A DNA stretch of 64,000 bases, taken from positions 15,044 to 79,043 of the forward strand of contig JAZRYB010000057.1 in NCBI GenBank assembly GCA_045600565.1, written 5' to 3'. Source of the stretch: Candidatus Cryptobacteroides sp. Lineage in GTDB: Bacteria; Bacteroidota; Bacteroidia; Bacteroidales; UBA932. A program made the translations under genes and the position numbers. Below the pieces are notes generated by a model, which had not been told where the DNA came from, did not search any database, and saw nothing but the letters and a program-made list of their open reading frames with translations. Shown here in pieces: positions 35,809 to 55,192 of this stretch; the first letter of the stretch is position 1, and each line of letters opens with the position of its first letter.

Positions 35809-36435
35809 ATGCCTGGATTAATTGGAAAGAAAATCGGAATGACTTCCGTTTTCAGTGCTGATGGAAAAAATATTCCATGCACTGTTATCGAAGCTGGGCC
35901 ATGTGTTGTTACGCAAATCCGTACAGTAGAGAAAGATGGTTATGCCGCTGTACAGCTTGCCTATGACGAAATTTCAGAAAAGCATGCCAGCGCGCCTCTT
36001 ATGGGCCATTTCAAAAAGGCAGGAACCACTCCTCGTCGTAAACTTGTCGAGTTTGAGGCAGATTTCGCAGGAGAGCTTAAATTAGGCGATGTCCTTTCAG
36101 TCGCTGACATCATCACTGAGGATGTCAAGTATGTGGATGTGGCCGGTACTTCTAAAGGTAAAGGTTTTCAGGGCGTTGTAAAACGTCACGGTTTTGCCGG
36201 AGTAGGTGGTAAGACTCACGGTCAGCACAACAGGCTCCGTCATCCCGGTTCAATGGGCGCATCTTCTTGGCCTTCTCGCGTATTCCCGGGAATGCGTATG
36301 GGCGGTCATATGGGCAACGAAAGAGTGAAGGTAAGAAACCTTCAGGTTGTCAAAGTGATACCTGAGAACAATCTTCTCGTCATTAAGGGCTCTGTTCCTG
36401 GAGCTAAAGGTTCTTACGTAATAATGGAGGCTTAA
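35809..36435 (+). CDS. rplC: 50S ribosomal protein L3
   Basis: [21 protein letters not shown]. Confidence 0.98.
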
Positions 36436-36438
36436 GAT

Positions 36439-37065: not shown

Positions 37066-37085
37066 GACGCCAAAAAGATAAAGCG

Positions 37086-37376
37086 ATGGGAATAATAATT
37101 AAGCCAATAGTAACAGAAAAGTTAACGGATCAGGGCGAAAAGTTGAACCGTTACGGCTTCATCGTTGACCGCAAAGCCAACAAGCTTCAGGTCAAGGCTG
37201 CCGTAGAGCAGATGTACAATGTGACAGTTGCGGATGTAAACACTGTCAACTATCACGGAAAGAAAAAATCACGCTTTACAAAGTCAGGACTCCTCAGAGG
37301 CCGCGCAAATCACTACAAGAAGGCATATGTTACTCTTGCCGGTGAAGATAAGATTGATTTCTACAATAATATTTAA
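37086..37376 (+). CDS. rplW: 50S ribosomal protein L23
   Basis: [15 protein letters not shown]. Confidence 0.97.
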
Positions 37377-37390
37377 GGAGGGACGTAACA

Positions 37391-38215
37391 ATGGCAGTAA
37401 GAAAATTCAAACCAGTAACTCCTGGTCAAAGAAACAAGGTGATCAGCTCATTTGATGAGATCACTACCAAAAAGCCTCATAAGGCATTGTTGGAGCCCCT
37501 CAAGAGCACAGGCGGACGTAACAATACAGGTCAGATGACCGTACGTTACATCGGTGGCGGACACAAGAGAATGTACCGTGTCATCGATTTCTACCGCGTT
37601 AAGGATGAGTGCACAGCCAAGGTTCTTACCATTGAGTATGATCCTAACCGCAGCGCACGTATCGCTCTCGTAGAATATGAAGATGGTGTAAAGAAATACA
37701 TCATCGCTCCTAATGGACTCAAAGTCGGACAGATTGTAGCATCCGGAAAGAATGTCGCTCCGGAAGTGGGCAACTGTCTTCCTCTGAGTGAGATTCCTGT
37801 AGGTACACTTGTACACAACATCGAGCTTCGTCCGGGGCAGGGTGCCGTTATGGCACGTTCTGCCGGATCATTCGCACAGCTCGCGGCACGTGAGGGAAAT
37901 CATGCCGTTCTGCGCCTGCCTTCAGGTGAGACAAGAATGGTTCTCGTTTCCTGCCGTGCCACTGTCGGTACAGTATCCAATCCTGATCATAATTTGGAGT
38001 CATTCGGAAAGGCAGGTCGCAGCAGATGGCTCGGTCGCCGTCCACACAACCGTGGTGTTGTTATGAACCCTCACGATCACCCTATGGGAGGTGGTGAAGG
38101 ACGTGCATCCGGTGGACATCCTCGCTCACGCAAGGGCCTTCCAGCTAAGGGATATAAGACACGTAATCCTAAGGCGTCTTCAAATAAGTTCATCATTGAA
38201 AGAAGAAAGAAATAA
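37391..38215 (+). CDS. rplB: 50S ribosomal protein L2
   Basis: [30 protein letters not shown]. Confidence 0.99.
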
Positions 38216-38237
38216 ACGGAATTAAACTTTAGAGATT

Positions 38238-38510
38238 ATGAGTCGTTCATTAAGAAAAGGTCCATATATCCAGGAAGCCCTGGAAAAGAAGATTCTTGCT
38301 ATGAATGAAGGTAGCAAGAAGAAAGAGGTGGTCAAGACCTGGTCACGCGCCAGTATGATTTCACCTGACTTCATCGGCCATACTATCGCAGTTCATAACG
38401 GAAACAAGTTCATTCCTGTTTATGTAACGGAGCAGATGGTAGGTCACAAGCTCGGCGAGTTCGCCCCTACACGTACATTCAGAGGTCATTCAGGTAACAA
38501 TAAGAAGTAA
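38238..38510 (+). CDS. rpsS: 30S ribosomal protein S19
   Basis: [19 protein letters not shown]. Confidence 0.99.
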
Positions 38511-38515
38511 TCATT

Positions 38516-38932
38516 ATGGGAAAGCGTAAAAGACTTATGGCTGAAAGCCTCAAGGAGGCAAAAAAGGTTACAGCTATTGCCAAGTTGAATGATATTCCAA
38601 CTTCTCCTCGAAAGATGCGTCTCGTTGCAGACACAGTAAGAGGACAGGAGGTCAACCATGCTCTCGATCTTTTGAAATTCTCAAAGAGAGAAGCATCTGT
38701 TCGTCTTGAGAAACTTCTCCGCAGCGCAATCGCCAACTGGGAAGCCAAGAATCCGGACAAGACCAAAGATTTGGATAACGGTAATGTCATCGTCAAGACC
38801 ATTATGGTTGGTGAAGGCCGCACGCTCAAGAGAATCCGTCCTTGCCCTCAGGGCCGTGCCGGACGTATCCGCAAGCGTTCCAATCACGTTACTATCATCC
38901 TTGATGTCAAACCAACAGCAGTAGAGAAATAA
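38516..38932 (+). CDS. rplV: 50S ribosomal protein L22
   Basis: [24 protein letters not shown]. Confidence 0.98.
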
Positions 38933-38933
38933 T

Positions 38934-39689
38934 ATGGGACAGAAAACTAATCCTATTAGCAACAGAATCGGTATCACCCGTGGTTGGGACTCTAACTGGT
39001 GTGGTGGTAACTATGCGGAAAAGATTGCAGAAGACTTCGAGATCCGCAAGTATTTGACAAACCGTCTTTCAAAGGCCAGCCTTTCAAAGATTGTCATTGA
39101 GAGAACTCTTAAACTCATCACTGTCACAATTCACGCGGCTCGTCCGGGTGTCATTATCGGCAAGGGTGGTGCAGAAGTTGACAAGCTGAAAGAGGAGCTC
39201 AAGAAGGTCACTAAGAAGGATGTTCAGATCAACATCTTCGAGGTCAAGAGACCGGAAGTGGATGCTCACATCGTGGCTGACAGCATCGCGCGTCAGATTG
39301 AAGGCCGCGTTTCATATCGCCGTGCCATCAAGATGGCGGTTGCCAACACTATGAGAGTAGGTGCTGAGGGTATCAAGGTTCAGATCAGCGGTCGCGTCGG
39401 TGGCGCTGAAATGGCTCGTTCAGAAATGTTCAAAGAGGGTCGTACTCCTCTTCACACATTCCGTGCTGATATCGATTATGCACTTGCAGTTGCAAACACA
39501 AAGGTAGGTACCCTTGGAATCAAGGTCTGGATTTGCAATGGAGAGCGTTACGGCAAGCAGGATCTTTCTCCTAACGCAGGTATCGCGGCAAATGCACAGC
39601 CATCCAATCAGGGCCGTCCTTCACGTGGTGGAGATCGCGGCAATCGCCGTGGTGGCAATCGTGGGCCACGCAGAGATGCTCAAAAATAA
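38934..39689 (+). CDS. rpsC: 30S ribosomal protein S3
   Basis: [30 protein letters not shown]. Confidence 0.99.
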
Positions 39690-39706
39690 ATTTTTGCATA
39701 TTTTTC

Positions 39707-39739
39707 AAAGCACGGCTCATCGAGTCGTGCTTTTTTTTT
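39707..39739 (+). terminator. Intrinsic terminator after rpsC
   Basis: AAAGCACGGCTC-ATC-GAGTCGTGCTTT stem (one G.U pair) running into a T9 tract. Confidence 0.88.
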
Positions 39740-39793
39740 GTTATATTGGCCACGGATTCGCAATATCAACAATACCACATAACAGAATAACTT

Positions 39794-41440
39794 ATGAAAA
39801 CCAAAAACTTCTTTTTCATCTGTACTGTTGCGGCACTCTTGGCTGTCGCTTCCTGTACGACAAAGCACATCAGTCCAAACGGGGTGGACCTGGATGAGCA
39901 ACAGCTTTATATTGGTGAGAATATTGCAGTGGCTCAGACTCAATACGGGAAAGTGCGCGGCTATATTCTTCGCGATATCTATACGTTCTATGGCATCCCG
40001 TACGGGGCATCGACTGCTGGCGAGAATCGTTTTATGCCCCCTCAGAAGCCGGAGCCTTGGAGTGATGTCCGTCCGGCAGTTTTCTATGGCAATTCAGCTC
40101 CTCAGGTCGTGACTTACGGACGTGAGGCGGAGTCCGTGTCTGCATTTGTGGACCACTGGAACTATGATTTATACAGCGAGGATTGCCTCAGACTCAATGT
40201 CTGGACACCTCAGCTGGACGCAAAGAAGAGGCCCGTCCTTGTATGGCTCCACGGCGGTGGGTTCAGCAACGGAAACAGTGTTGAGCAGGACGGATATAAC
40301 GGAGAGAATCTTTCACGCTACGGAGACATCGTTTTCGTATCTGTCAACCATCGTCTCAACTCTTTCGGCTATACGGATTTTGCCGCTGTCGGAGGAGAGA
40401 AGTACAAGCATTCCGGGAATGTCGGTATGCTCGATATCATCGCATCGCTCGAATGGGTTCGTGACAATATCTCAAATTTTGGCGGTGATCCTGACAATGT
40501 GACAATTATGGGCCAATCCGGAGGTGGATCAAAGGTCAGCATCCTCGCATCGATGCCTGCGGCAAAAGGTCTTGTTCACAAAGCGGTGGCCTTGAGTGGC
40601 AACTCTGTACGCGGTGCTGACAAAGAATATGCGGAAGGTCTTGGCGCATACATTGTTGAGAAAGCCGGACTGAAGCCGGGAGAGATAGACAAGCTTCAAC
40701 AGATGTCGTGGGAGGAATATTTCGCGCTTGCGAATGCCGCTGCACGGGAATATGGGCAGACCCATAAAAGTCCAAACGGACGCGCCGGATTCAGCCCTGT
40801 CGCAGATGGCATAGACCTTCCTTCCGGTCAGTTCTATGATCCTTCCGATCCTTCCATTCCTGATATCCCGATGCTGTATTGTACCACTTTCGAGGAAGGT
40901 AATCCGGACAGGGACAGGCCTGCTCTGGAGAATTCGTCAATTGAGGATGTCATCAAGGCATTGACTCCTAATTATGGAGAGAAGGCAAAAGCCATTGTGG
41001 AGGCTTACGCTGCCACGTTCCCTGATCTTCGTCCTATTGAGGTATGGGGCCTTCTCACAGGTGTCCGTACGAATGTTGTTCGTTCGGCGAATGTCAAGGT
41101 GGAACAGAAGTCTCCGGTCTATATGGCTTGGTTTGGTTGGCATTCACCTTTGTTTGACGGCCGTCTTCGCGCATTCCATTGCTCGGATATCAGTTTTTGG
41201 TTCCATAATACGGATTATATGCTGACGCATAACGGAGGAGGTAAGCGCCCTCGCGCCCTCTCTGAAAAGATGTCAGATGCCCTGCTCGCCTTTATGCGTA
41301 CCGGCAATCCTAATTGCAAAGCTCTTCCGGAATGGCCTGAATATACTCCTGAGAATGGAGAGGTTATGATTCTGAATGATGTTTGCGAAGTAAAAAATGA
41401 TCCGGACAGGGCTTGCCGCGCTGTCATTACGGACAATTGA
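39794..41440 (+). CDS. Type-B carboxylesterase, lipoprotein
   Basis: Lipobox VASC, GIPYG, SEDCL.LNVW, HGGGF, GQSGGG nucleophile, FHCSD His. Confidence 0.9.
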   Translation: MKTKNFFFICTVAALLAVASCTTKHISPNGVDLDEQQLYIGENIAVAQTQYGKVRGYILRDIYTFYGIPYGASTAGENRFMPPQKPEPWSDVRPAVFYGNSAPQVVTYGREAESVSAFVDHWNYDLYSEDCLRLNVWTPQLDAKKRPVLVWLHGGGFSNGNSVEQDGYNGENLSRYGDIVFVSVNHRLNSFGYTDFAAVGGEKYKHSGNVGMLDIIASLEWVRDNISNFGGDPDNVTIMGQSGGGSKVSILASMPAAKGLVHKAVALSGNSVRGADKEYAEGLGAYIVEKAGLKPGEIDKLQQMSWEEYFALANAAAREYGQTHKSPNGRAGFSPVADGIDLPSGQFYDPSDPSIPDIPMLYCTTFEEGNPDRDRPALENSSIEDVIKALTPNYGEKAKAIVEAYAATFPDLRPIEVWGLLTGVRTNVVRSANVKVEQKSPVYMAWFGWHSPLFDGRLRAFHCSDISFWFHNTDYMLTHNGGGKRPRALSEKMSDALLAFMRTGNPNCKALPEWPEYTPENGEVMILNDVCEVKNDPDRACRAVITDN

Positions 41441-41458
41441 AAGTAATTAACTTTTTTT

Positions 41459-42304
41459 ATGAAAAAGATCTTGTTTCCTGTCGCCATTGCGGCATTGACG
41501 GTACTCGGTTGCGCAGGCTCGGTATCCGATGAAAAATTGCTTGGAACATATCAATCCGAATATCAGGCATTGATGGATTCATATTCTGAAAATATGTCGG
41601 CCATATCCGAGGACTCGTCTCTTGCGGATGATGAGAAGGACATACAAATGGAAGCCCTTTATGAGGAGACTGTGGAGAGGATGTGTGACAATGCATTGAG
41701 GTTAATAAATGGCAATCCTTCAAGTCCTGTTGTGATAGATGTGCTGAAGGACACATATTACTATTTTGATCCCGAATTGTTGTCCGAAACTTTGGATTCG
41801 CTTTGCGATTCGCTCCAGCAGAATGAGTTTGTGACTACCCTCAGAGAGGGTCTTGCCGCGAAGATGAAGACAGCTGAAGGCAGGATGTTTACGGATTTCA
41901 GCATTGTCCAGGATCCGGACAATGCTGAATCGACCACGGTGAAATTTTCGGATTATATCGGCAAAGGAAAATATATACTCGTGGACTTCTGGGCGAGCTG
42001 GTGCGGACCGTGTAAAGGTGAGATTCCGAATCTTAAGGCTGTCTATGAGAAGTTCAAGGGTGATGACTTCGATATGTTGAGTGTCGCTGTTTGGGATGAA
42101 CCGGCCGCTTCCGTTGATACTGCCGCCGCTTATGGTATCAAGTGGAATCATATCATCAATGCGCAGAAAATTCCTACGGATATTTACGGCATCGATGGTA
42201 TTCCGCATATCATTCTGTTCGGCCCTGACGGCAAGATATTGAAAAGAGAACTGCGAGGAGCGGCAATCGGCGAAGAAATATCCAAATATATCAGCGCTAA
42301 ATAG
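41459..42304 (+). CDS. TlpA-like thioredoxin-fold lipoprotein
   Basis: Lipobox VLGC, DFWASWCGPC, GIPHIIL. Confidence 0.9.
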   Translation: MKKILFPVAIAALTVLGCAGSVSDEKLLGTYQSEYQALMDSYSENMSAISEDSSLADDEKDIQMEALYEETVERMCDNALRLINGNPSSPVVIDVLKDTYYYFDPELLSETLDSLCDSLQQNEFVTTLREGLAAKMKTAEGRMFTDFSIVQDPDNAESTTVKFSDYIGKGKYILVDFWASWCGPCKGEIPNLKAVYEKFKGDDFDMLSVAVWDEPAASVDTAAAYGIKWNHIINAQKIPTDIYGIDGIPHIILFGPDGKILKRELRGAAIGEEISKYISAK

Positions 42305-42310
42305 TTCATA

Positions 42311-44119
42311 GTGGATATTCGCGAGAAGATTTCTCTATTTCCGCATTCCCCCGGAGTTTATAGATATTATGACTCCGGTGGGAATGTGATTTATGTCGGG
42401 AAAGCCAAAGATCTCCATAAGCGGGTATCCCAGTATTTCGTTCCTCCCGAGAGGCTTAACGCTAAAACACGTATCCTCGTCTCCAGGATTGTCGATGCCC
42501 AATACTCCGTTGTAGATTCGGAAGCGGATGCCTTGCTTCTTGAAAACAACCTGATAAAGCAGTATAAGCCTAAGTACAATATCCTGCTGAAAGACTCGAA
42601 AACATATCCTTGGATATGCGTGTCGGCCGATTCTTTCCCTAAAGTCTATATGACGAGACGCATGGTCCAGAATGGTTCAAGATACTTCGGCCCGTACAGT
42701 TCGGCCATCCACGCAAGAAATCTTCTGGAATTCATCTCCCATACATACCCTCTCAGGACCTGCAAATACAAGATTGACTCTCAGACCGTTCTCCGGAGAA
42801 AAATCCGACCGTGCCTGGATTACCATATCGGAAAATGTCGTGGGTGCTGTATTGGTGCGATTTCTCAGGAGGAATACCTCTCTAATATCGAAGAAATAGT
42901 CAAACTCCTGAAGGGGGGTGTATCAGATTTAATAAAAGACTGCAAGGCAAGGATGCAGGAAGCTTCTGATGCCCTTGATTTCGAGACGGCCCAGAGATAT
43001 AAGACAAAGGTCGAAGCTTTGCAGAAACATTATGCCAAGTCTATTATCACCTCTTCGAGGGACAATGATTCAGATGTCTTTTCTCTTGTATTCGACGGGA
43101 TGGAAGCATTCGGCAACTTTCTGCGTGTTCGCGGGGGAGCTGTCATACAGTCTCTCAATCTTGGGTTCAAAATGAATATTGAGGAAGATGAATCATCCGT
43201 ACTGAGCGCTTTTATTGCGGAAATCGAAAGCAAGTTCGGAGACCTTTCTGCAGAAGTGATTGTTCCTTTTCTCCCCGACGTATCCATTGATGGCGTCAAG
43301 TTCAAAATTCCGGTCAAAGGGGACAAGTTGTCATTGCTGGAACTCAGCATTAAGAATGCAAAAGAGCATAGTTTCAATACTATGCGTCAGCGTGAGCATA
43401 CCAATCCGGACTCATTCCGCAGGAGTGTGATGCTGGATCTTCAGAAGGCATTGGGGATGAAGGAGCTTCCTGTGCATATCGAATGCTTTGACAATTCCAA
43501 CATCCAGGGGACTAATCCTGTTGCTTCTTGCGTGGTTTTCCGTAATGCGGAGCCGTCCAAGGGGGATTATAGAAAATTCAAGATAAAGACTGTCATAGGT
43601 GCGAATGATTATGCTTCAATGAAGGAAGTTGTGAATCGCAGGTATTCCAGAATGCTGGAAGAAGCCCCTGATGATCTGCCCCAATTGATTGTGATAGATG
43701 GCGGGAAGGGACAGTTGAGCTTTGCCTATCAGGCTCTTACCGAACTTGGTCTGACAGATAAACTTATGGTCATAGGACTGGCCAAGCGGCTTGAAGAAGT
43801 CATCAGAGTGGGGGACCCTTACCCTCTGTTCATAGACAGGAATTCTCAGGCGCTGAAGGTGCTCCAGCGCATCCGGGATGAGGCCCACAGATTCGGCATA
43901 ACCTTCCATCGCAGCCTGAGAAGCAAAGCGCAGATCAAATCTGCCCTGAGAGAGATAAAAGGTGTCGGTGAACAGACAGAAAAGCGATTGCTTATGCATT
44001 TCGGCAGCGTAGCCAGAATTGCATCCGCTTCTTTGGAGGATTTGTCTGCAATGGTTGGCCCTATTCTTGCTGAAAAAATCAATAAAGAATTAAACACGAA
44101 TGAAAGAGAAGACATTTAA
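42311..44119 (+). CDS. uvrC: Excinuclease ABC subunit C
   Basis: PGVY...IYVGKAK, IECFDNSN, LIVIDGGKGQL, RDEAHRF, HhH motif; GTG start. Confidence 0.97.
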   Translation: MDIREKISLFPHSPGVYRYYDSGGNVIYVGKAKDLHKRVSQYFVPPERLNAKTRILVSRIVDAQYSVVDSEADALLLENNLIKQYKPKYNILLKDSKTYPWICVSADSFPKVYMTRRMVQNGSRYFGPYSSAIHARNLLEFISHTYPLRTCKYKIDSQTVLRRKIRPCLDYHIGKCRGCCIGAISQEEYLSNIEEIVKLLKGGVSDLIKDCKARMQEASDALDFETAQRYKTKVEALQKHYAKSIITSSRDNDSDVFSLVFDGMEAFGNFLRVRGGAVIQSLNLGFKMNIEEDESSVLSAFIAEIESKFGDLSAEVIVPFLPDVSIDGVKFKIPVKGDKLSLLELSIKNAKEHSFNTMRQREHTNPDSFRRSVMLDLQKALGMKELPVHIECFDNSNIQGTNPVASCVVFRNAEPSKGDYRKFKIKTVIGANDYASMKEVVNRRYSRMLEEAPDDLPQLIVIDGGKGQLSFAYQALTELGLTDKLMVIGLAKRLEEVIRVGDPYPLFIDRNSQALKVLQRIRDEAHRFGITFHRSLRSKAQIKSALREIKGVGEQTEKRLLMHFGSVARIASASLEDLSAMVGPILAEKINKELNTNEREDI

Positions 44120-44846
44120 CAGATTATTCAATGGTTTCATTCTCATAGGAATGTTCGTTTCCGTGTTGATTGGCAGTTACTTGAAGCTCAGACAGGGAGA
44201 AGGGAATTCTGTTCTGATGGTCTTGTCGGCAGTGGGAGCCTTGGCCGGAGTTTTAAGTACCGTGTTGTCTGCCGGGGGGAATATCTTTTGCTTCGTTTTT
44301 GGACTGATAGATGTTGTAATATACTCTTATGCTCTGTTTGACAGCGGAAATCCACTCACGTTCTGTCTTCACGTGTTTTATTTCATTCCTATGGAGTTTG
44401 TGGGCTTCTTTATGTGGAAAAAGCGTGGTGCAGATTCCAAGTCCGCGGTCAAGGCCCGCAGGCTCAAAGGCATAGGACAATGGGTGAAGGTTATTGCGTT
44501 TTTTGTTTTTGTTTTTGTGGCCTGTTTCTCTCTGTCTTGGGTCGCCGCGTCAAAAGGTTGGATTCAAATAGAACAAGACCCGTCTAAGATTGCTCTCGAT
44601 GCAATGATGACGACGACGAATATAGTGGCGCTGGTTCTGATGAGCCTTGCATATTATGAGCAGTGGTATCTCTGGCTGCTGGTGAACGTCTCATCCATAA
44701 TAACTTGGTCGCTCTTGCTAAAGAATGACCCTCAGTCGGCTTACAGTATAGTCTATCTGATAAAATACATTTTTTATCTGTTGAATTCAGTCAATGGGAT
44801 TAGGATATGGTTGAAACTCAGCAAAGACGAGATTTCTTGCAAATAA
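44100..44846 (+). CDS. PnuC-family vitamin/nucleoside transporter
   Basis: Multiple TMs, [19 protein letters not shown]...W. Confidence 0.85.
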
Positions 44847-44919
44847 TGAAATTTTTTTATTTCTTTGCAGTTCAAACGTGGAATTTGGACAAAATAATAA
44901 TAAACTAAAATCTAAAGTT

Positions 44920-45168
44920 ATGGAATACGAGGAAATCGTAAAGAAAGTCAAAGCTATTATCGTAGATAAACTTGGCGTAGAAGAGACAGAAGTTACCGAG
45001 ACAGCCAATTTCACAAATGACCTCGGAGCAGACTCTCTTGATACAGTGGAGCTCCTTATGGAGTTTGAGAAAGTTTTCGGAGTCAAGATTCCAGATGAGG
45101 AGACGAGCTCAATAGCAACTGTTCAGGATGCAATCGATAAAGTTGCTGAGAAAGTGGCGCAGAAGTAA
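44920..45168 (+). CDS. acpP: Acyl carrier protein
   Basis: [18 protein letters not shown]. Confidence 0.97.
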
Positions 45169-45185
45169 AATTTCTGATAATAAAT

Positions 45186-45217
45186 AAAGGGGCCGCCCAA
45201 TATTGGGCGGCCCCTTT
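45186..45217. terminator. Bidirectional terminator (32-bp perfect palindrome) between acpP and the convergent lipoprotein gene
   Basis: AAAGGGGCCGCCCAAT|ATTGGGCGGCCCCTTT. Confidence 0.88.
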
Positions 45218-45239
45218 TATCGTGTTCTGCTGCTGTCCC

Positions 45240-46868
45240 TTACTCTTTCGGCACGGAATAAACGACTCTGAGCCGTGGCCTTCTGCCTTCAGGTGCCAGT
45301 GGGCTGTTGATGGCCGCCTTGTAGTACCTGTTGTTGTCAAGCATAATGGCAGACTGTGTCTGGGTATTATTGCTCACCATTGACGAAGCCATTGAATAGC
45401 TGAGATAATTGGAATAGCCGTATCCTCCATAGCCGCCATAGCCGTATCCATAACCGCCATAGCCGTATCCGTAGCCGCCATATCCTCCGTAGCCTCCGTA
45501 GCCGTTGTACATCTGGTTGTAATAGTTGGCATACATAAGATTCTGGTAATAACTGTTCCAATCTTCTTCTGAAGTGACAGTGGAGGTCTTGTATGTTTCG
45601 GTCTTCATTATCATCATCCAGATATCGTAATTGGATATTTTGTCTTTATCCGTTGTCCGCAGGATGGATTGAACGTGATACGAAAGTCCCGGGGCATATT
45701 GGCAGGTGGACCGGTTCAAATAACCCATATTCTCCGTGGACAGACTCGAATTGGTGATACTGGCAAAAGAAATCAGTGTGTCCAGATCGATACGGCAAGT
45801 CGGGTTGAGAATCTCCGGATAATAATCCATATCTGTGTAGTCGTCCGGAAACTCAAAAGGCATAATCAATTCCGCTTTGTGAATGAAAGACTTGGTATAG
45901 TCTCCATACTGGGATATTTCTGCAATCAGCTTTTCCTTGATTTCCGCTGCGGAGAATACCGGTTTCGGGCTGCCTCCTCCTTCGATAGGGATGACCTCGG
46001 TGATTTGCTTGGAAGGAGCCTCGACTGTGGCGTTGAATGCATATTGCGGCAGCAGTCCGATAGTGCTGTTGGTTAACAGAGAATCAGAATCATAGAACTT
46101 GTCAAGCCCAAAAAGGAAAATGAAAGAAGTGTCCTTGGACTTTCCGTTATATTCTGCAGTGAATTCCAGATTGGCATAACTCCCGGTGATGGCGTAATTG
46201 TTCCCGTCGACATCGGCTTGAACTGAAAACATATTGAAACGTCCGCCTTGCCCCAGAGGCTCGTCAACATTGAAAAGGATGCCGGGGTATTTCTTGAGAT
46301 ATGTATTTATGTCTTTCAGGTCCTCCTGCTTGATATTGAGGTATTTGCTTGCGAATTCTTCTGAAAAGTCAAATGTCAGCGAATCTCCGCCGTTGTACAC
46401 GGGGACACCTCTGGTCACGCGTGTGGTGCCGTGCTCAGGGATATGGTTTCCGTCTAAGATTGAGATAGGCTTGGTCAACTCGAACACGTTGACATTCTGC
46501 ATTACTCTGGATTGGGAAGGATCCGCCGCGGAGATGGTGTCGGCCGGCATTGTGAAAAAGAATCGCCTCAGTTTTGTGTTCTGCCCGAAGTCCAGAGTGT
46601 CATAGAATGGGACGAGTGTGATTGCACTCTCTCTTGTGGAGAGACGGGATTCTGCATCTCTGATAGCTCCGAATGTGATATGTCTTGAAGAATATCCTGA
46701 GAGACTGTCGGCAACCTTCAGAGTGACATCTTCAAGATCAAACTCGAAAATCTTCATTTCGTATTCCTGGTCTGCGGGAACGAGGTTTCGGCCAACACTG
46801 TTGTCTATTTTTACGCAGGAATACGTGCAAAGGACAGCGGCAAAGAAAGGGAGTAACTTAAAGTTCAT
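45240..46868 (-). CDS. Outer-membrane lipoprotein, DUF4270-like, with a Gly/Tyr-rich tract
   Basis: Lipobox TYSC; beta-rich; C-terminal PRLRVVYS; position downstream of a glycogen-synthase-like gene as I recall for Bacteroidales DUF4270 genes (family call by context). Confidence 0.65.
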   Translation of the reverse strand: MNFKLLPFFAAVLCTYSCVKIDNSVGRNLVPADQEYEMKIFEFDLEDVTLKVADSLSGYSSRHITFGAIRDAESRLSTRESAITLVPFYDTLDFGQNTKLRRFFFTMPADTISAADPSQSRVMQNVNVFELTKPISILDGNHIPEHGTTRVTRGVPVYNGGDSLTFDFSEEFASKYLNIKQEDLKDINTYLKKYPGILFNVDEPLGQGGRFNMFSVQADVDGNNYAITGSYANLEFTAEYNGKSKDTSFIFLFGLDKFYDSDSLLTNSTIGLLPQYAFNATVEAPSKQITEVIPIEGGGSPKPVFSAAEIKEKLIAEISQYGDYTKSFIHKAELIMPFEFPDDYTDMDYYPEILNPTCRIDLDTLISFASITNSSLSTENMGYLNRSTCQYAPGLSYHVQSILRTTDKDKISNYDIWMMIMKTETYKTSTVTSEEDWNSYYQNLMYANYYNQMYNGYGGYGGYGGYGYGYGGYGYGYGGYGGYGYSNYLSYSMASSMVSNNTQTQSAIMLDNNRYYKAAINSPLAPEGRRPRLRVVYSVPKE

Positions 46869-46870
46869 TT

Positions 46871-47689
46871 TTACAATTGGTCATAAAAATCGTTGTACTC
46901 GTCAACATATCTTCCGCTCGAGATTGATTCTTCGTTGAAAGGGAGGATAGGAAGATGGAGCGATTCGCAGAATCCCGTGAGCTCGGAATCAATGTCCTTG
47001 GCTCCGTAGATAACTGCGTCTGAGTACTGCACTGCGGTTTTCGCAAGATTTATGCCAGTGGCCTCCGAAAGGAAAGGGGCATCTTCGAGACTGACACTTC
47101 CGAAAGGTATCTTTTTCTGAAAATCGTTTGAAAAATTGTCCTTCGGTGTGTCGTCATATAGAGAGAGAACAACCTTGCTGTTGGAAAATATCGGGTCGTC
47201 CACGTAATTCTTTTTCAAATACATAGGTACGAGGTGGGAAATCCATCCGTGACAATGGATGATATCGGGAGCCCATCTGAGCTTCTTAACGGTCTCAAGT
47301 ACTCCGCGGGCGAAGAAAAGCGTACGCTCATCATTATCCTCAAAGAATGCTCCGGACTCATCAAAATAGGTTTGTTTGCGTCTGAAATAGTCGTCGTTGT
47401 CAATAAAATAGACTTGAATCCTGGCGGACGAAATCGAGGCCACCTTTATGACGAGAGGCCTGTCTACGTCACTGATGATGATATTCATTCCGGACAGCCT
47501 GATCACCTCGTGCAGTTGATTCTTTCTTTCATTGATGCATCCGTATCGGGGCATGAATGAACGAATCTCCTTCTTTTTTGCTTGAATGCCCTGAGGGAGA
47601 TAACGGCCTATGTTCGCCAATGTGGACTCCGGGATGTAAGGATAAATCTCGGAGTTTACGAAAAGCACTTTCTTTACGGTTTGACCCAT
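46871..47689 (-). CDS. Glycogen/starch synthase N-terminal-domain protein (Glyco_transf_5 only)
   Basis: KKVLFVNSEIYPY, FMPRYG, VYFIDN..YF, W.PDIIHCHGW; 272 aa, no second Rossmann domain. Confidence 0.85.
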   Translation of the reverse strand: MGQTVKKVLFVNSEIYPYIPESTLANIGRYLPQGIQAKKKEIRSFMPRYGCINERKNQLHEVIRLSGMNIIISDVDRPLVIKVASISSARIQVYFIDNDDYFRRKQTYFDESGAFFEDNDERTLFFARGVLETVKKLRWAPDIIHCHGWISHLVPMYLKKNYVDDPIFSNSKVVLSLYDDTPKDNFSNDFQKKIPFGSVSLEDAPFLSEATGINLAKTAVQYSDAVIYGAKDIDSELTGFCESLHLPILPFNEESISSGRYVDEYNDFYDQL

Positions 47690-47750
47690 TTTGTCTTTTA
47701 TTTTCCTATTCAAGCAAAGGTAATAAAAAAAATTCATAAATTTGTACGTT

Positions 47751-48629
47751 ATGTCATTAGCGGAGAATAAATTGATTAATCGCAGGCTTCAAAGCGCCTA
47801 TCTTTCTACGGTAATAAGTATCAGTTTGGTGTTGTTACTGGTCGGTGTCGCCGCACTGCTTATGGTGAATGCGCGGAGCGTGAGCAATTTTTTCAAGGAA
47901 AATATGCAGATATCGGTGCTTATGAAGCAGGATGTGACAGATGAGCAGGCGCAGGCGTATCAATCTGAGTTGGATGAGATGGGGTTTATCAACAGCACTC
48001 GTTTTGTCTCGAAGCAACAGGGCACTGAAGAAATGAAAGATATGTTGGGAGAAGACTTCTTGAAGGTTTTCGAGTCTTCCCCTATTCCCTCATCTATAGA
48101 TTTGACTCTGAAGGCCGAATATGTCTCATCCGACAGTCTTGTTGTTGTCGAGAAAGCTATTATGAAGTCACCGCTTGTGGAGGAGGTGGATTATCAGCAA
48201 TCGCTGATTAAAGCGTTGAATGCCAATCTTCAGAAGATAGCTGTTTTCCTTGGTATTTTCATTCTGCTGTTGCTGTTCATCTCGTTTGTGCTCATCAACA
48301 ATACTGTGCGCCTGAGCGTTTTTTCCCGCCGGTTCACTATTCATACAATGAAACTTGTCGGAGCGACAAAGTCTTTTATCCGCTCTCCGTTCTTGCTGCG
48401 TGCGGTATTTCAGGGACTGATTTCTGCAATGACGGCAATTATTTTTCTGTTGGGGCTTCTCTTCCTGATAAGGTCACAATTCTCCCAGCTGTTCTCGATT
48501 TTCCATATGGACCTTCTTTTGATTGTGTTGGGTATAGTAATTGTTGCCGGTGTGCTTATTTGTGTGGTCAGCACCTATTTTGTGGTCGGAAAACTTGTGT
48601 CCCTGACCAGGGATGAATTATATGTATAA
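47751..48629 (+). CDS. ftsX: FtsX-like permease
   Basis: STVISISLVL, INNTVRL....RRFTIHTMKLVGAT..FIR.PF. Confidence 0.92.
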   Translation: MSLAENKLINRRLQSAYLSTVISISLVLLLVGVAALLMVNARSVSNFFKENMQISVLMKQDVTDEQAQAYQSELDEMGFINSTRFVSKQQGTEEMKDMLGEDFLKVFESSPIPSSIDLTLKAEYVSSDSLVVVEKAIMKSPLVEEVDYQQSLIKALNANLQKIAVFLGIFILLLLFISFVLINNTVRLSVFSRRFTIHTMKLVGATKSFIRSPFLLRAVFQGLISAMTAIIFLLGLLFLIRSQFSQLFSIFHMDLLLIVLGIVIVAGVLICVVSTYFVVGKLVSLTRDELYV

Positions 48630-48878
48630 ATGATTATGGACAGGATGGCTATTACCCCAAAAGGGTTGAAACTTTTGATTGCGGGAGTCCTGGTGATGAT
48701 TGCCGGGTATATCCTTATGATGGGAGGGGGGAGCGATGACCCCGGGGTGTTCAATTATGCTATGTTTGATTTCAGGCGGCTCGTTGCGGCTCCAATAGTG
48801 ATTCTCGCGGGTGTTGTCGTGGAGATAATAGCCATAATGCGGGTGTCTGGGGACAAGAGGGAGGATGATGCGAAATGA
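48630..48878 (+). CDS. DUF3098-type membrane protein
   Basis: Two TMs, GYILM.GGGS.DP..FN, conserved ftsX-X-uppP position. Confidence 0.8.
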   Translation: MIMDRMAITPKGLKLLIAGVLVMIAGYILMMGGGSDDPGVFNYAMFDFRRLVAAPIVILAGVVVEIIAIMRVSGDKREDDAK

Positions 48879-49657
48879 GTATATGGCAAGCTGTAATTCT
48901 GGGCCTGATACAAGGCCTCACAGAGTTTCTTCCGGTCAGCAGCAGCGGTCATCTGGCCATAGGCCGGGACTTGTTGGGCGTAGATGCGGCCGGTGATCTT
49001 GTGTTTGAAGTTGCGGTTCACGCGGCTACGGCGCTGGCCATCATTATCGTCTTCCGAAAGGAAATTCTCCGTTTGCTCGGAGGCTTTTTCAAGTTCAAAT
49101 ACAATGAAGAGACAGACTATATTTTAAAGATAGTCGTTTCTATGATTCCCGTTTTCATTGTCGGTGTTTTCTTCAAGGACTATGTCGAGAGTTTGTTCAG
49201 TTCTCTTATGGTGGTCGGGTTCGCTCTTGTCGCTACGGCGGCACTTCTTTTCTTGTCCGGCAGATATGGCTCCGCAGAAGGGAAAATTACTTATGGAAAA
49301 GCTTTCATTATCGGTCTCGGACAGGCTCTTGCAGTGATCCCGGGGCTGTCGAGGTCCGGGACGACCATTTCTACCGGTCTTCTTTGTGGGGTCAGCAGGG
49401 AGACCGTTGCGCAGTTTTCTTTCCTTATGGTGCTGGTCCCTATTCTTGGCGAAGCCTTCCTTGACCTCATTGGCGGAGATATGGTCTCCTCCTCCATCGG
49501 GGCCGCTCCTCTTGCTATAGGTTTTATGACAGCATTCGCCTCCGGCCTTTTTGCCTGCAAGGCTATGATAGCATTGGTGCGTAAGGCTCGACTTGACTGG
49601 TTCGCCCTGTATTGTGCGGTTGTCGGCGCGATTGTCATTATTTGTTCTCTCGGATAA
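48875..49657 (+). CDS. uppP: Undecaprenyl-diphosphate phosphatase
   Basis: QGLTEFLPVSSSGHL, PGLSRSG.TI, FSFL. Confidence 0.97.
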   Translation: MSIWQAVILGLIQGLTEFLPVSSSGHLAIGRDLLGVDAAGDLVFEVAVHAATALAIIIVFRKEILRLLGGFFKFKYNEETDYILKIVVSMIPVFIVGVFFKDYVESLFSSLMVVGFALVATAALLFLSGRYGSAEGKITYGKAFIIGLGQALAVIPGLSRSGTTISTGLLCGVSRETVAQFSFLMVLVPILGEAFLDLIGGDMVSSSIGAAPLAIGFMTAFASGLFACKAMIALVRKARLDWFALYCAVVGAIVIICSLG

Positions 49658-49669
49658 CCCAAAATATAT

Positions 49670-50422
49670 ATGAAAGAACGCTGCTATTTTGTCTCAGATG
49701 TGCATCTTGGGTTGGATGTGAACGATTCGATTGATCGTGAGGCGCGATTTGTCGGCTTTCTTCGCGGCATTCCGACCGAAAACACGGAGGCTCTGTATCT
49801 TCTTGGCGACATCTGGGATTTCTGGTACGAATATAAGGATGTGGTTCCGAAAGGTTATGTCCGTGTGTTTTCTGAGCTTCTCAATCTGATGGACGCAGGA
49901 GTGAAAGTATATTTCTTCCGGGGCAATCACGATATCTGGACCTATCACTATTTTGAAAGTCTTGGCATCACAATCCTGGAGCAACCTTGTCTGATAGAGA
50001 TAGGGGGCAAGAGTCTCTGCCTCGGCCACGGTGATGGACTTGGCCCGGGGATGCGAAGCTACAAATTGATGCGGTCCATTTTTTACAACAAAGTGCTGCA
50101 GACCCTTTTCAGCGCATTGCATCCCCGCTTGGCATTTGCTTTCGGGCGCAGCTGGTCAAAAAGGAGCAGATTGGCAAGGCGTGAGAAATATTGTTTCAGG
50201 GGAGAGGATGAGCCTTTGTATAAATTTGCCGTGGAATATGCTTCAACCCACAAGGTGGATTATTTCATCTTCGGGCATTATCATACTGGAGTTGATATGA
50301 CACTCCCGTCCGGGGAGAGGCTGATTGTACTGGATGACTGGATTGACGGCACCAACTATGCCTATTCGTATTCCAACGGGATTTCAACTTTCTGGGGCCA
50401 TTCCATAAACAGGGAGAAATAG
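49670..50422 (+). CDS. lpxH: UDP-2,3-diacylglucosamine diphosphatase
   Basis: SDVHLG, LGDIWDFW, GNHD, HGDG, FGHYH. Confidence 0.88.
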   Translation: MKERCYFVSDVHLGLDVNDSIDREARFVGFLRGIPTENTEALYLLGDIWDFWYEYKDVVPKGYVRVFSELLNLMDAGVKVYFFRGNHDIWTYHYFESLGITILEQPCLIEIGGKSLCLGHGDGLGPGMRSYKLMRSIFYNKVLQTLFSALHPRLAFAFGRSWSKRSRLARREKYCFRGEDEPLYKFAVEYASTHKVDYFIFGHYHTGVDMTLPSGERLIVLDDWIDGTNYAYSYSNGISTFWGHSINREK

Positions 50423-51021
50423 AGGGCATCGAATTGCCCGTGCTCCCATTTTTCGATTAGATACTCCGTCATACGGTCTTCTCCGTTCGGATCATAAGGC
50501 GTTTTCAGATTCTGGCCGAAAAGTTTCCCGACGCCTTGCCAGAAATTGGCCGCCAATCCGTTTTTGTAGGTCTTGACTATGCTATACGGTGTCAATCCTG
50601 TCTCTCTGTCAACCAGCCGGATAAGCAGTTGTCCTTGCGATATGGTCATATTGCGGGCGATTTCCGAGAAATCTTCAAGAAGTTTGTTCTCGACCTGAAG
50701 AACATACTTGTCTTTTTTGTACCTGTTCATTCCGGCCATCTCTTTCTCGGCTCTGGCTATGACTTTCTTGGCCACACTGGTGTAAGGATAGACTTTGCTG
50801 AAATTATAGACGAGTTTGTAGTATTTCCTTACATCAGGACTTTTCTTGTTTTTGATAGGGGGAAAAACTATTGCCGGAGCCAATTCATCTACATAGACAG
50901 TATCCCCCGGAGTCTCCACATAGTATTCCATAAAAATTCTTTCCTGCCAGGATGATTTCTGAGCATATGCCGAAAGGCACCCGGTCAAAAGGGCTGTCAT
51001 TATGATGCAAAGTCTTCTCAT
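50362..51021 (-). CDS. DUF4294-type exported protein
   Basis: Signal peptide, KVYPY, QGQLLIRLVDRETG, FWQGVGKLFG.NLK..YDP. Confidence 0.8.
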   Translation of the reverse strand: MRRLCIIMTALLTGCLSAYAQKSSWQERIFMEYYVETPGDTVYVDELAPAIVFPPIKNKKSPDVRKYYKLVYNFSKVYPYTSVAKKVIARAEKEMAGMNRYKKDKYVLQVENKLLEDFSEIARNMTISQGQLLIRLVDRETGLTPYSIVKTYKNGLAANFWQGVGKLFGQNLKTPYDPNGEDRMTEYLIEKWEHGQFDALYFSLFMEWPQKVEIPLEYE

Positions 51022-51232
51022 TTTCGGATGCAAAAGTAACAAATATTATGCAAATGAAGTTATGCCGATTTTCAATTTATCTTGAGGCTTCGGCTTTGTG
51101 TCGAAAATGATGCGGAAAAGTTTTGTACAACATATGTTAATTATCTGAAAATACGCATATTGAGTATTACTTTTTTGTGTCGAAAATATTGAAAAAAAAC
51201 AGAAAATATGTTTGTGTTTGATTTATTTTTAC

Positions 51233-51240
51233 TAAATTTG
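51233..51240 (+). promoter_or_regulatory. -7 element TAAATTTG driving rplP...rplQ
   Basis: Consensus match with TTTG at 51211-51214. Confidence 0.75.
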
Positions 51241-51330
51241 CAGTCCCAAAATTTGGCCTCAAATAGGTTAAGATACTGATTGCCAGATAGTTGGGAAAAT
51301 TTGATTGTTTATATTTTAAAGTAATACAAA

Positions 51331-51750
51331 ATGTTACAACCTAAGAAAACAAAATTTAGAAGGGAGCAGAAAAACCGTATGAAGGGAATGGCCCAGAGAG
51401 GAAACCAGCTCGCATTCGGTTCTTTCGGTCTTAAAACCCTTGAAAATTGTTGGCTTACAGCACAGCAGATTGAAGCTGCCCGTCAGGCTATTTCACGTTA
51501 TATGAACCGTGAAGGTCAGATCTGGATCAGAGTCTTCCCTGTAAAGCCAGTTACCAAGAAGCCTCTTTCAACCCGTATGGGTAAAGGTAAAGGTGATCCT
51601 TACGGATTTGTCGCACCTATCACCCCGGGCCGTATTCTTTTCGAGGCTGAGGGAGTTTCCCTCGCTATTGCAAAAGAGGCTATGCGTCTTGCTGCACACA
51701 AACTTCCTGTTGACACAAAGTTTGTTGTTCGTAGAGATTATGTTGAATAA
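51331..51750 (+). CDS. rplP: 50S ribosomal protein L16
   Basis: [23 protein letters not shown]. Confidence 0.99.
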
Positions 51751-51756
51751 AATTTA

Positions 51757-51966
51757 ATGGAGAAAGAAATGAAAGTATCAGAAGTACGCGAGATGTCTGT
51801 AGCAGATCTCCGCGATCGCATTGAGATTGAGAAAGCAAATCTTGATTCTATGAAGATCAATCACGCTATCTCTCCATTAGAGGATACGTCAAAGTTTAAG
51901 AAAACCAGACAGGATATCGCTCGCATGATCACTATCCTCGCTGAGAAAGAAAAAGAACAGAACTAA
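51757..51966 (+). CDS. rpmC: 50S ribosomal protein L29
   Basis: R.DIARM.T; position in cluster; alternative start at 51769. Confidence 0.95.
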   Translation: MEKEMKVSEVREMSVADLRDRIEIEKANLDSMKINHAISPLEDTSKFKKTRQDIARMITILAEKEKEQN

Positions 51967-51977
51967 ATTGATGTCTT

Positions 51978-52232
51978 ATGGAAAGAAATCTTCGTAAGGA
52001 AAGAGTAGGAGTAGTGGTCAGCAACAAGATGGACAAGACCATCATCGTTGCCGTTGAAATCAAAGAGAAACATCCTTTGTACGGAAAATTCGTAAAGAAG
52101 ACCACAAAGTTCGTCGCTCAGGACGAAAAGAACGAATGTAGCATCGGTGACGTCGTCCGCATTATGGAAACACGTCCGTTGAGCAAGACCAAGAACTGGA
52201 GACTAGTAGAAATCGTAGAAAAAGCAAAATAG
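51978..52232 (+). CDS. rpsQ: 30S ribosomal protein S17
   Basis: [20 protein letters not shown]. Confidence 0.99.
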
Positions 52233-52235
52233 CAT

Positions 52236-52601
52236 ATGATACAGCAGGAAACACGTTTACAGGTAGCCGACAACAGCGGGGCAAAGGAAGTCCTTTGTAT
52301 CCGTGTGCTTGGCGGTACTCACCATCGTTACGCTACTGTAGGCGACACAATTGTTGTCTCAGTTAAGAGTGCTATCCCTGGCGGTGACGCCAAGAAAGGT
52401 ACAGTATCAAAAGCTGTAGTGGTACGCACTAAGAAGGAAATTCGTAGAGTGGATGGTTCTTACATCCGTTTCGATGATAATGCTTGTGTTCTTCTCAACA
52501 ATGCGGGAGAACTCAGAGGAACACGTATCTTTGGCCCGGTTGCCAGAGAGCTTCGTGAGAATTATATGAAAATCGTTTCACTGGCACCGGAGGTCCTTTA
52601 A
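52236..52601 (+). CDS. rplN: 50S ribosomal protein L14
   Basis: [20 protein letters not shown]. Confidence 0.99.
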
Positions 52602-52613
52602 TTGATTAAGATT

Positions 52614-52931
52614 ATGAAAAAATTGCATATTAAAAAAGGTGACACCGTGTATGTAAATGCCGGAAACGACAAGGGCAAGACAGGAAAGGTTCTTTCAGTC
52701 GATCCTTCCAAGGACCGCGTTATCGTTGAAGGAATCAACATCGTCAGCAAGCACACAAAACCAAATTCAAAGCAGCCTCAGGGCGGTATCATCAAGCAGG
52801 AGGCTGGTATTCACGTCTCAAATCTTCAGCTTATCGATCCACAGAGTAACAAGCCAACGAGAGTCGGCTATAGGTTCGAAGGCGACAAGAAGATCCGTTA
52901 CGCTAAAAAATCTGGGGAGGAGATCAAATAA
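52614..52931 (+). CDS. rplX: 50S ribosomal protein L24
   Basis: [22 protein letters not shown]. Confidence 0.98.
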
Positions 52932-52933
52932 TT

Positions 52934-53533
52934 ATGGCAGCAAAGAAAGAAAAAACCGTAGCAGTTCAGCCGCTTCCTGAATCATACGTACCTACTCTCA
53001 AGAAGGTATATAAGGAAGAAATCGTTCCGGCTTTGACAAAGCAGTTCTCTTACTCGACAGTAATGCAGGTCCCTAGGCTCGTCAAAATCACCATTAATGA
53101 GGGTGTGGGCGATGCAACACAGGACAAGAAGATTGTCGAGGAGGCAGCAACAGAGCTTTCAACAATCGTAGGACAGAAAGCTGTCATCACTAATTCAAGG
53201 AAGGATATCTCCAACTTCAAACTCCGTAAAGGTATGCCTATCGGAGCAAAGGTCACGCTTCGTGACGTCAAGATGTATGAGTTCCTTGAGAGACTTATCA
53301 GAGTTACTCTTCCTCGTATCCGCGACTTCAACGGTATAGCTGAGAAGATGGACGGACAGGGTAACTACACCCTCGGTCTCAAGGAGCAGATTATCTTCCC
53401 TGAGATTGATATTGACAAGAACCCTAGAATTCACGGCTTGGAGATCACATTCGTGACAACCGCAAAGACTGACGAAGAGGCTTATGCCCTTCTTAAGGAA
53501 TTCGGCCTGCCTTTCAAAAAACATAATAAATAA
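52934..53533 (+). CDS. rplE: 50S ribosomal protein L5
   Basis: [30 protein letters not shown]. Confidence 0.99.
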
Positions 53534-53539
53534 TTCACT

Positions 53540-53809
53540 ATGGCAAAAGAATCAATGAAAGCCCGCGAGGTTAAGCGCGCTAAACTCGTTGCAAAATACG
53601 CCGAGAAGAGAAAGGCACTCAAAGAAGCCGGTGATTGGGCTGCTCTTGACAAGCTTCCTAAGAACGCTTCTCCGGTACGCCTCCACAACCGTTGTTCGCT
53701 CACCGGTCGTCCAAAGGGATATATGCGTGACTTCGGTCTCAGCCGTATCCAGTTCCGTGAGATGGCATCCAACGGCCTTATTCCGGGTGTAAAGAAAGCA
53801 AGTTGGTAA
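53540..53809 (+). CDS. rpsN: 30S ribosomal protein S14 (89 aa, non-zinc type)
   Basis: [22 protein letters not shown]. Confidence 0.99.
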
Positions 53810-53830
53810 AAAATTAAAAAGTAATACAAT

Positions 53831-54226
53831 ATGACAGATCCAATTGCAGATTATCTCACTAGGATACGTAATGGTTATCTTGCTGGTAACAAGGTAGTGG
53901 AGATTCCTTCTTCCAAGATGAAGGTCGCCATCACCAAGATCCTTTGTGAGAAGGGTTACATTCTTAGCTACAAGGTAGTGGAAGGAGCCCCACAGGACAC
54001 AATCAAAATCGCCCTTAAGTATCATCCTCAGACCAAAGTTGCCGCTATCAAGAAGATTGAGCGCGTCTCCACTCCGGGCTTGAGACAGTACACGGATGTA
54101 AAGGATATGCCACGCGTCCTCAACGGACTCGGCATAGCCATCATATCAACATCCAAGGGCATCATCACTGACAAGGAGGCCAAGGATCTCAATGTCGGCG
54201 GTGAGGTAATATGTTATGTTTATTAA
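53831..54226 (+). CDS. rpsH: 30S ribosomal protein S8
   Basis: DPIADYLTRIRN, STPGLR.Y, STSKG. Confidence 0.99.
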   Translation: MTDPIADYLTRIRNGYLAGNKVVEIPSSKMKVAITKILCEKGYILSYKVVEGAPQDTIKIALKYHPQTKVAAIKKIERVSTPGLRQYTDVKDMPRVLNGLGIAIISTSKGIITDKEAKDLNVGGEVICYVY

Positions 54227-54243
54227 TCTAAAAACTCTTATAA

Positions 54244-54804: not shown

Positions 54805-54819
54805 TAGGAGGATTGAGTT

Positions 54820-55182: not shown

Positions 55183-55192
55183 TTGAAAGACT

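Follow-up and report, generated by a model that had tools for sequence, protein, structure and literature searches.

A ribosomal protein gene row divided into three units in a large clade of the Bacteroidales family UBA932

How does a row of ribosomal protein genes come to be cut open in the middle of an operon, and how is its expression arranged afterwards? This question is raised by a stretch of 64,000 nucleotides (nt) from Candidatus Cryptobacteroides sp. (assembly GCA_045600565.1, contig JAZRYB010000057.1, positions 15,044 to 79,043; hereafter "the window"), in which the S10 operon genes rpsC and rplP are set apart by a gap of 11,641 bp (39690–51330) that holds 12 non-ribosomal genes (39794 to 51042). 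Cryptobacteroides corresponds to the genus RC9 of the family UBA932 in the GTDB taxonomy (PMC8035907). A sequence-only reading of the window had described the operon as split in two by these 12 genes, had remarked on a strong terminator after rpsC, a promoter of rplP's own and the lack of integrase, transposase and tRNA genes, and had proposed an old, fixed rearrangement that might serve as a lineage marker. When the gene identities in the window were checked with NCBIfam or Pfam, the position and extent of this split proved exact to the base.

Taken together, the evidence presented here leads us to a reading to which we assign a probability of roughly 85%: the fragmentation of the str-S10-spc-alpha row is real, ancient and fixed, it has left three units with promoters of their own, and the gap between rpsC and rplP has grown in place from a small insertion.

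Two breaks in the ribosomal row of a large UBA932 clade

The genome has all 11 genes of the S10 set (rpsJ to rpsQ), but not as one contiguous series on a single strand. While ten of them lie in the window, rpsJ is found on a separate contig (G000:C6) at the end of the series rpsL-rpsG-fusA-rpsJ, which there runs against a convergent gene. In the place upstream of rplC where rpsJ would be expected, the window has cdaA and mutS2, both on the reverse strand, and the 12 gap genes separate rpsC from rplP. Thus, the old str-S10-spc-alpha row now consists of three units, namely rpsL-rpsG-fusA-rpsJ, rplC to rpsC, and rplP to rplQ. The break at rpsC|rplP that the sequence-only reading had recognized is real, but a division into two falls short, as the row is also broken at rpsJ|rplC.

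The break recurs throughout the relatives examined. Not one of 80 related species loci, obtained from samples of cattle, goat, deer, yak, horse, chicken and human origin, has rplP directly after rpsC; apart from local inversions in a few species, the order is rpsC, a variable slot, tlpA-uvrC-pnuC-acpP, the genes of a 542-amino-acid (aa) protein and of a GlgA N-terminal-domain protein, ftsX-DUF3098-uppP-lpxH-DUF4294, and then rplP where the locus extends that far. Likewise, the two genes are apart in every genome of the genus that was searched, including seven with both on one contig, where they are 10–31 kb apart, on the same strand and colinear. Misassembly is ruled out by the occurrence of the same break in so many independent assemblies.

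The survey was extended to 151 UBA932 genomes from 35 genera. Adjacency of rpsC and rplP was found in 25/25 genomes of seven genera, with 140–350 nt between the matches to their hidden Markov models, and in 0/120 genomes of the remaining 28 genera. In the intact relatives (e.g., L086 and L087), the row is contiguous as rpsL-rpsG-fusA-rpsJ-rplC...rpsC-rplP...secY. Among the split genomes, 27 carry both genes on one contig, several of which are closed chromosomes, at distances from 2 kb to 562 kb. A maximum-likelihood tree was calculated from 12 proteins encoded between rplP and secY; each genus was represented by a single genome, and four further families served as outgroups. Here, the 27 tips from 26 of the 28 split genera group together in one clade, which has a Shimodaira–Hasegawa-like (SH-like) support of 0.998, and the intact genera branch off basally, as a grade. 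In none of the split genera is rpsJ found in the 1.3 kb preceding rplC, which dates both breaks to the stem of the clade. The row was, thus, broken at rpsJ|rplC and at rpsC|rplP in the stem lineage of a large UBA932 clade of at least 28 genera.

Outside the family, one genome was examined for each of 108 other Bacteroidales families, and rpsC and rplP are adjacent in 107 of them. The sole exception (genome G032 of family f9) has both genes at contig ends, on different contigs (L192/L193); rpsC ends exactly at the contig end, and the approximately 190 nt before rplP encode the end of a small hydrophobic open reading frame (ORF), not rpsC. This genome may have undergone an independent small insertion at rpsC|rplP, or it may represent a contig-end artefact.

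These data bear out what had been proposed from the window alone. The rearrangement is old and fixed, being present in all genomes of the genus, in the 80 species loci and in 28 genera forming one clade; and it is suited as a lineage marker, given that the adjacency is kept in 107 of 108 other families and in the seven basal UBA932 genera. The sequence-only reading had staked its claim on the split not being both widespread and already described: widespread it is within UBA932, but no publication describing it for Cryptobacteroides, RC9 or UBA932 turned up in full-text searches.

The features of the locus are compiled in Table 1. rplC is listed as an ORF at 35764–36435, but its likely true start is the ATG at 35809 (MPGLIGKK...); in the right unit, rpmJ and rplQ are assigned by position and size only.

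Table 1. Features of the ribosomal locus in the window (coordinates in nt from the first position of the window; strand as read in the window)
Feature	Position	Strand	Remarks
cdaA (diadenylate cyclase)	34910..35719	-	Pfam DAC and CdaA_N; left neighbour of rplC, in the place expected for rpsJ
rplC-unit promoter	35720..35756	+	-33 TTG 35720-35722; -7 TATATTTG 35742-35749; then CAGCCCG
Small hairpin at 5' end of rplC transcript	35752..35774	+	GCCCGCC...GGTGGGC
Left unit, rplC to rpsC	35809..39689	+	NCBIfam equivalogs
rpsC	38934-39689	+	NCBIfam
Intrinsic terminator after rpsC	39707..39742	+	Hairpin 39707-39733, 12-bp stem, then T9; 17 nt after rpsC stop
COesterase (carboxylesterase)	39794-41440	+	Pfam COesterase; in variable slot just 3' of rpsC terminator
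TlpA/ResA-like thioredoxin	41459-42304	+	NCBIfam
uvrC	42311-44119	+	NCBIfam
pnuC	44100-44846	+	NCBIfam
acpP	44878-45168	+	NCBIfam; opens block common to other genera
Perfect 16+16-nt palindrome	45186..45217	both ways	Two-way terminator between acpP (+) and 542-aa gene (-)
542-aa protein	45240-46868	-	No family match
288-aa GlgA N-terminal-domain protein (Glyco_transf_5)	46871-47737	-	
ftsX	47742-48629	+	
DUF3098	48630-48878	+	
uppP	48875-49657	+	
lpxH	49670-50422	+	
DUF4294 gene	50362-51042	-	Pfam; divergent from rplP; likely ATG near 51021 (219 aa)
25-nt repeat TTTGTGTCGAAAAT, two copies 79 nt apart	51095..51198	+	GTCGAAAA cores 51100-51107 and 51179-51186; upstream of rplP promoter
rplP-unit promoter	51211..51247	+	-33 TTTG 51211-51214; 18 nt; -7 TAAATTTG 51233-51240; then CAGTCCC
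Candidate stem-loop, 5' end of rplP leader	51245..51295	+	CCCAAAATTTGGC...GCCAGATAGTTGGG
rplP	51331-51750	+	First gene of right unit
Right unit, rplP-rpmC-rpsQ-rplN-rplX-rplE-rpsN-rpsH-rplF-rplR-rpsE-rpmD-rplO-secY-map-infA-rpmJ-rpsM-rpsK-rpsD-rpoA-rplQ	51331..61822	+	NCBIfam

Two of the gap genes deserve a brief comment. The 288-aa protein lacks the C-terminal GT1 domain of glycogen/starch synthase, but its gene adjoins ftsX in at least nine genera and is, hence, not a recent pseudogene. The 542-aa protein contains a Gly/Tyr-rich tract that is encoded by tandem 21-nt repeats (45405–45506).

History of the gap

The individual parts of the gap differ in their distribution. The right two-thirds are old, because the block of eight genes from acpP to the DUF4294 gene, ending at rplP, is common to at least nine genera including that of the window; the DUF4294 gene as the neighbour of rplP is found in at least 13 genera. 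The series tlpA-uvrC-pnuC (41459..44846) stands beside rpsC only in the window's genus (Cryptobacteroides, g1), and the esterase gene follows rpsC only in the window's genome, being present at that place in 0/80 related loci. In a basal split subclade (g49 and g51), only a reverse-strand pfkA gene, with or without a gene for a C39-like peptidase, lies between rpsC and rplP, and the gap measures about 2 kb.

The slot following the rpsC terminator (39743–41458) is a hot spot of gene gain, holding 0–8.7 kb of differing genes among Cryptobacteroides species (e.g., in L003, L007, L017 and L054). Local inversions are also seen inside the gap, affecting either uvrC-pnuC or the entire segment from the 542-aa gene to lpxH (L039, L040, L050, L069, L072, L076 and L078). 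Now outside an operon, the gap region is structurally fluid.

Where rpsC and rplP are found on the same strand of the same contig, they are colinear with rpsC upstream in 20/20 pairs (8/8 genera); seven pairs lie on opposite strands. Growth of the gap in place, with scattering by inversions at a later time, agrees with this pattern. Accordingly worded as a sequence of events, the gap would have started as a small insertion, such as is seen in the approximately 2-kb pfkA gap of the basal genera; after co-transcription had been lost, it would have been enlarged in place by further insertions, up to the 10–31 kb of housekeeping genes in Cryptobacteroides; and in other genera, inversions would have dispersed the pieces over distances of up to about 560 kb. 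A single simple inversion or transposition was considered as the first event, but none could be reconstructed: in the intact genera and the outgroups, the DUF4294 gene lies at a distance of 54–780 kb from the row, and lpxH is not its neighbour.

Several observations weigh against growth of the gap from one small insertion and, in part, against the reading as a whole. The left junction common to many other genera, in which rpsC is followed by the ORF clusters c19, c25, c21 and c38, is unlike the rpsC-tlpA junction of Cryptobacteroides; given these differing left junctions, the 10-kb colinear state in Cryptobacteroides could partly be secondary. Furthermore, the subclades have different genes in the gap, pfkA in the basal one and the acpP...DUF4294 block in the main one. 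The tree was built from the genes of the rplP unit themselves, with one genome per genus, and the start sites, the termination and the expression ratios of the three units are deduced from motifs in the sequence and from how well these are conserved.

The alternative that has to be weighed most seriously takes up these differences and assumes at least two independent breaks at rpsC|rplP, one by insertion of pfkA in the basal subclade and another by arrival of the acpP...DUF4294 block in the main subclade. It would account for the fact that g49 and g51 have no gap genes in common with the main subclade, and for the somewhat different -33 regions of the two subclades. Nevertheless, we regard it as unlikely. 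All split genera belong to one clade, they have the rpsJ|rplC break in common, and they show the same promoter architecture before rplP; moreover, this junction is almost never broken elsewhere in the order, so that it would take a coincidence for it to be hit twice in sister lineages. A single break in the stem lineage, followed by growth of the gap in place, thus, remains the preferred history.

Probable separate transcription of the three units

The strong terminator that had been noticed after rpsC, with its 12-bp stem and T9 tract, is not peculiar to the window, as a hairpin with a T-tract follows rpsC in 72/80 species, the stem sequence being different in each. In control scans, such structures were found after the internal genes rplC, rplD, rplB and rplV in 0/51 to 0/71 cases and in 4/80 shuffled sequences.

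The promoter of rplP's own, about 90 nt before its ATG in the window, is equally well conserved. The housekeeping promoter consensus of the Bacteroidetes, as known from the literature on Bacteroides fragilis, consists of a -33 TTTG and a -7 TAnnTTTG element. Both rplC and rplP are preceded by a -7 TAnnTTTG with a -33 TTTG or TTG about 17–21 nt upstream, and the rpsL, rplC and rplP units resemble the consensus, both elements being present in each of them and spaced as usual. A TAnnTTTG promoter is found 56–178 nt before rplP in 49/49 split genomes versus 0/11 intact ones, where the stop codon of rpsC is only about 20–45 nt away from the start of rplP. Upstream of rplC, TAnnTTTG is present within 160 nt in 50/50 related loci.

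Unlike the general consensus, the promoters heading the three units are extended downstream by a conserved C(A/G)N1-2CC(C/G), which in this genome accompanies mainly genes of the translation apparatus. The extended promoter reads TAnnTTTGCAnnCC(C/G), corresponding to the pattern TAnnTTTGC(A/G)N1-2CC(C/G), and the extension downstream of -7 is common to TATATTTGCAGCCCC before rpsL, TATATTTGCAGCCCG before rplC and TAAATTTGCAGTCCC before rplP. In the 1.99-Mb genome, the extended pattern occurs at 44 sites, 17 of which are located within 200 nt upstream of a transfer RNA (tRNA) gene; among other TAnnTTTG matches, 24/1367 precede a tRNA gene. Two of the 44 are 16S leader sites, one with a 16S start within 1.5 kb and the other with the same leader sequence, and nine units for ribosomal proteins or ribosome assembly stand behind extended sites (rpsL, rplC, rplP, rplY, rpsT, rpmH, rplS, rpsF and rimP), with the rpsT site doubling as a tRNA-Glu site. 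As an observation on the sequence, the extended pattern resembles a promoter subclass dedicated to the translation apparatus, in which -7 is followed by a G+C-rich stretch.

In Escherichia coli, the promoters of ribosomal RNA (rRNA), tRNA and ribosomal protein genes with a GC-rich discriminator are under growth-rate or stringent control. The likeness lies in the use of one promoter subclass, G+C-rich between the -10-like element and the start, for stable-RNA and ribosomal protein units; whether the extended element of the Bacteroidales genome might be regulated as are the GC-rich discriminators of E. coli is a matter of analogy only. The pieces of the row would have been placed under a promoter class that already served the translation apparatus, and their output would have been kept matched without a new mechanism; we infer that the shared promoter class may still keep the three pieces matched. 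The sequence-only reading had held that new mechanisms for ribosomal protein stoichiometry would be required. There is no need for them, as the pieces carry the promoter type already used for tRNA, rRNA and other ribosomal protein genes.

Judged by these signals, the three pieces are probably independent transcripts. Could they, nonetheless, still act as one functional operon, with read-through from rpsC to rplP and the rplP promoter as a mere booster? Long ribosomal protein operons commonly have internal promoters and partial terminators, which lends the idea some initial appeal. However, read-through from rpsC to rplP is unlikely because the terminators at 39707 and 45186 and three reverse-strand genes intervene: a transcript would need to pass the strong, conserved terminator and then the perfect two-way terminator, and the reverse-strand genes in its path include one partner of the convergent pair lpxH/DUF4294. 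In many relatives, moreover, hundreds of kb separate the halves, or the two are found on opposite strands. We consider a surviving single operon very improbable; separate transcription of the three units is the reading we retain.

The rplP unit shows further conserved sequences around its promoter. A GTCGAAAA box is located about 25–45 nt upstream of -33 in most split genera, irrespective of the upstream gene, and is duplicated in the window; from its sequence and position, it may be a site at which a regulator binds. An interpretation of the box as an upstream element of general use was rejected, since in this genome the exact box together with the promoter occurs only at rplP. Downstream, the first 70 nt of the rplP leader fold with a minimum free energy of -16.2 kcal/mol (z = -2.2), the mean folding z over 49 rplP leaders, relative to shuffled sequences, is -1.75, and a 5' hairpin of about 50 nt is predicted in most species; the leader also contains a conserved TGATAAnCAG...GTTTAG/GTTAA motif. 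The hairpin in the rplP leader is indicated only by such single-sequence folding energies: no consensus structure of the rplP leaders was obtained from a MAFFT alignment with RNAalifold, and a hand-drawn 11-pair leader helix had 63% paired cells in comparison with 61% in shuffles and, thus, performed no better. A search with Rfam gave no family match anywhere in the 64-kb window. At the position of the rplC hairpin, the stems of other species differ in sequence but are still paired (CCCCT/AGGGG, CCGCCGG/GCGGCGG and CCGCA/TGCGG).

It is conceivable that the GTCGAAAA box and the approximately 50-nt leader stem-loop together make up a lineage-specific control element, to which a regulator or one of the unit's own ribosomal proteins might bind, but on the motifs described we regard this as distinctly doubtful. 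If true, the feedback that rplP lost on its separation from the S10 leader would have been restored, and a new ribosomal protein leader confined to UBA932 would be at hand.

The translation starts are conserved as well. Just before the ATG of rplP (51300–51330 in the window), TTAAAGTAATA(C/G)ARCA is nearly invariant in the genus, and ACAATTAATTAAC(A)AACCA is conserved before the ATG of rplC; both start regions are without a classical Shine-Dalgarno sequence.

Kind of event and its meaning

Given that the slot after rpsC differs between species by 0–8 kb and that the esterase gene is present only in the window's genome, one might suppose that a mobile element or a horizontally acquired island has recently entered an otherwise intact operon. 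The content of the gap is hardly compatible with such an event. As had been noted from the sequence alone, there is no integrase or transposase family among the 12 gap genes and no tRNA gene, the latter holding for the entire 64-kb window; furthermore, no direct repeats were found flanking the gap, and its GC content (0.41–0.52) is similar to that of the flanks, with no shift in composition at the junctions. Thus, integrase or transposase, tRNA target, flanking direct repeats and deviant composition, by which mobile elements and genomic islands are recognized, are all lacking. The genes themselves are core housekeeping genes (uvrC, acpP, ftsX, uppP and lpxH) in a block that is conserved throughout the genus and, for the eight genes from acpP to DUF4294, in nine genera, which makes a recent island most improbable. 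Finally, the suspicion that unrelated pieces were joined at 39.7 kb and 51.3 kb into a chimeric contig by assembly or binning, as might befall a metagenome-assembled genome of 93 contigs with an estimated contamination of 5%, can practically be set aside in view of the identical gene order in 80 independent species assemblies and the genomes of the same genus, the closed single-contig UBA932 genomes that likewise lack the rpsC-rplP adjacency, the unchanged composition at the junctions, and the terminator and promoter conserved exactly there.

Compared with the canonical S10 row, all genes are single-copy, and their order and orientation within each piece are unchanged. What differs is that the cuts at rpsJ|rplC and rpsC|rplP do not follow the classical operon borders, that non-ribosomal genes lie in between, and that the pieces have promoters of their own. 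In E. coli, the S10 operon is preceded by a single L4-responsive leader before rpsJ; a single promoter and leader at this place is not what serves the window's genes, as rplC and rplP each have a separate promoter. The E. coli S10 leader is confined to the Gammaproteobacteria (PMC3616713).

Insertions that disconnect this conserved operon cluster have been described by Brandis in 2021 for Gammaproteobacteria and Bacilli, involving tusDCB, bfd-bfr, ilv-leu, and nrdHEF inside the rpoBC operon, with insertion coming first and loss of synteny later (PMC8046335). Of the 115 rearrangements counted there, 65% fell between operons, which makes breaks inside an operon a less common but known class (PMC8046335). 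The UBA932 locus resembles those cases in that a few housekeeping genes were inserted, with full disconnection following in descendants and with no sign of distant horizontal transfer; non-cluster genes lie between former neighbours whose flanks are colinear, and the neighbourhood is clade-wide, with disconnection in some descendants. It is unlike them in that it concerns Bacteroidota, in that both breaks are inside the S10 operon, and in that they have become fixed across 28 genera or more. Hence, this is an ordinary kind of event, an insertional rearrangement of the ribosomal row, at an unusual place and in an unusually large clade.

For the biology of the family, the break constitutes a structural marker of the abundant uncultured rumen and gut Bacteroidales known as the "RC9 gut group" (Cryptobacteroides) and of their relatives, which is usable for the checking of genome bins and in support of the taxonomy of the clade. 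It is also a natural experiment, in which one of the best-conserved gene adjacencies of bacteria can break and stay broken for a long time, and which tests how ribosomal proteins are balanced without co-transcription. The break was likely tolerated because the pieces sit behind a promoter class that already drives the genes of tRNA, rRNA and other ribosomal proteins. The series of distances, from 2 kb through 10–30 kb to hundreds of kb, fits the view that one insertion removed the selection that holds the row together.

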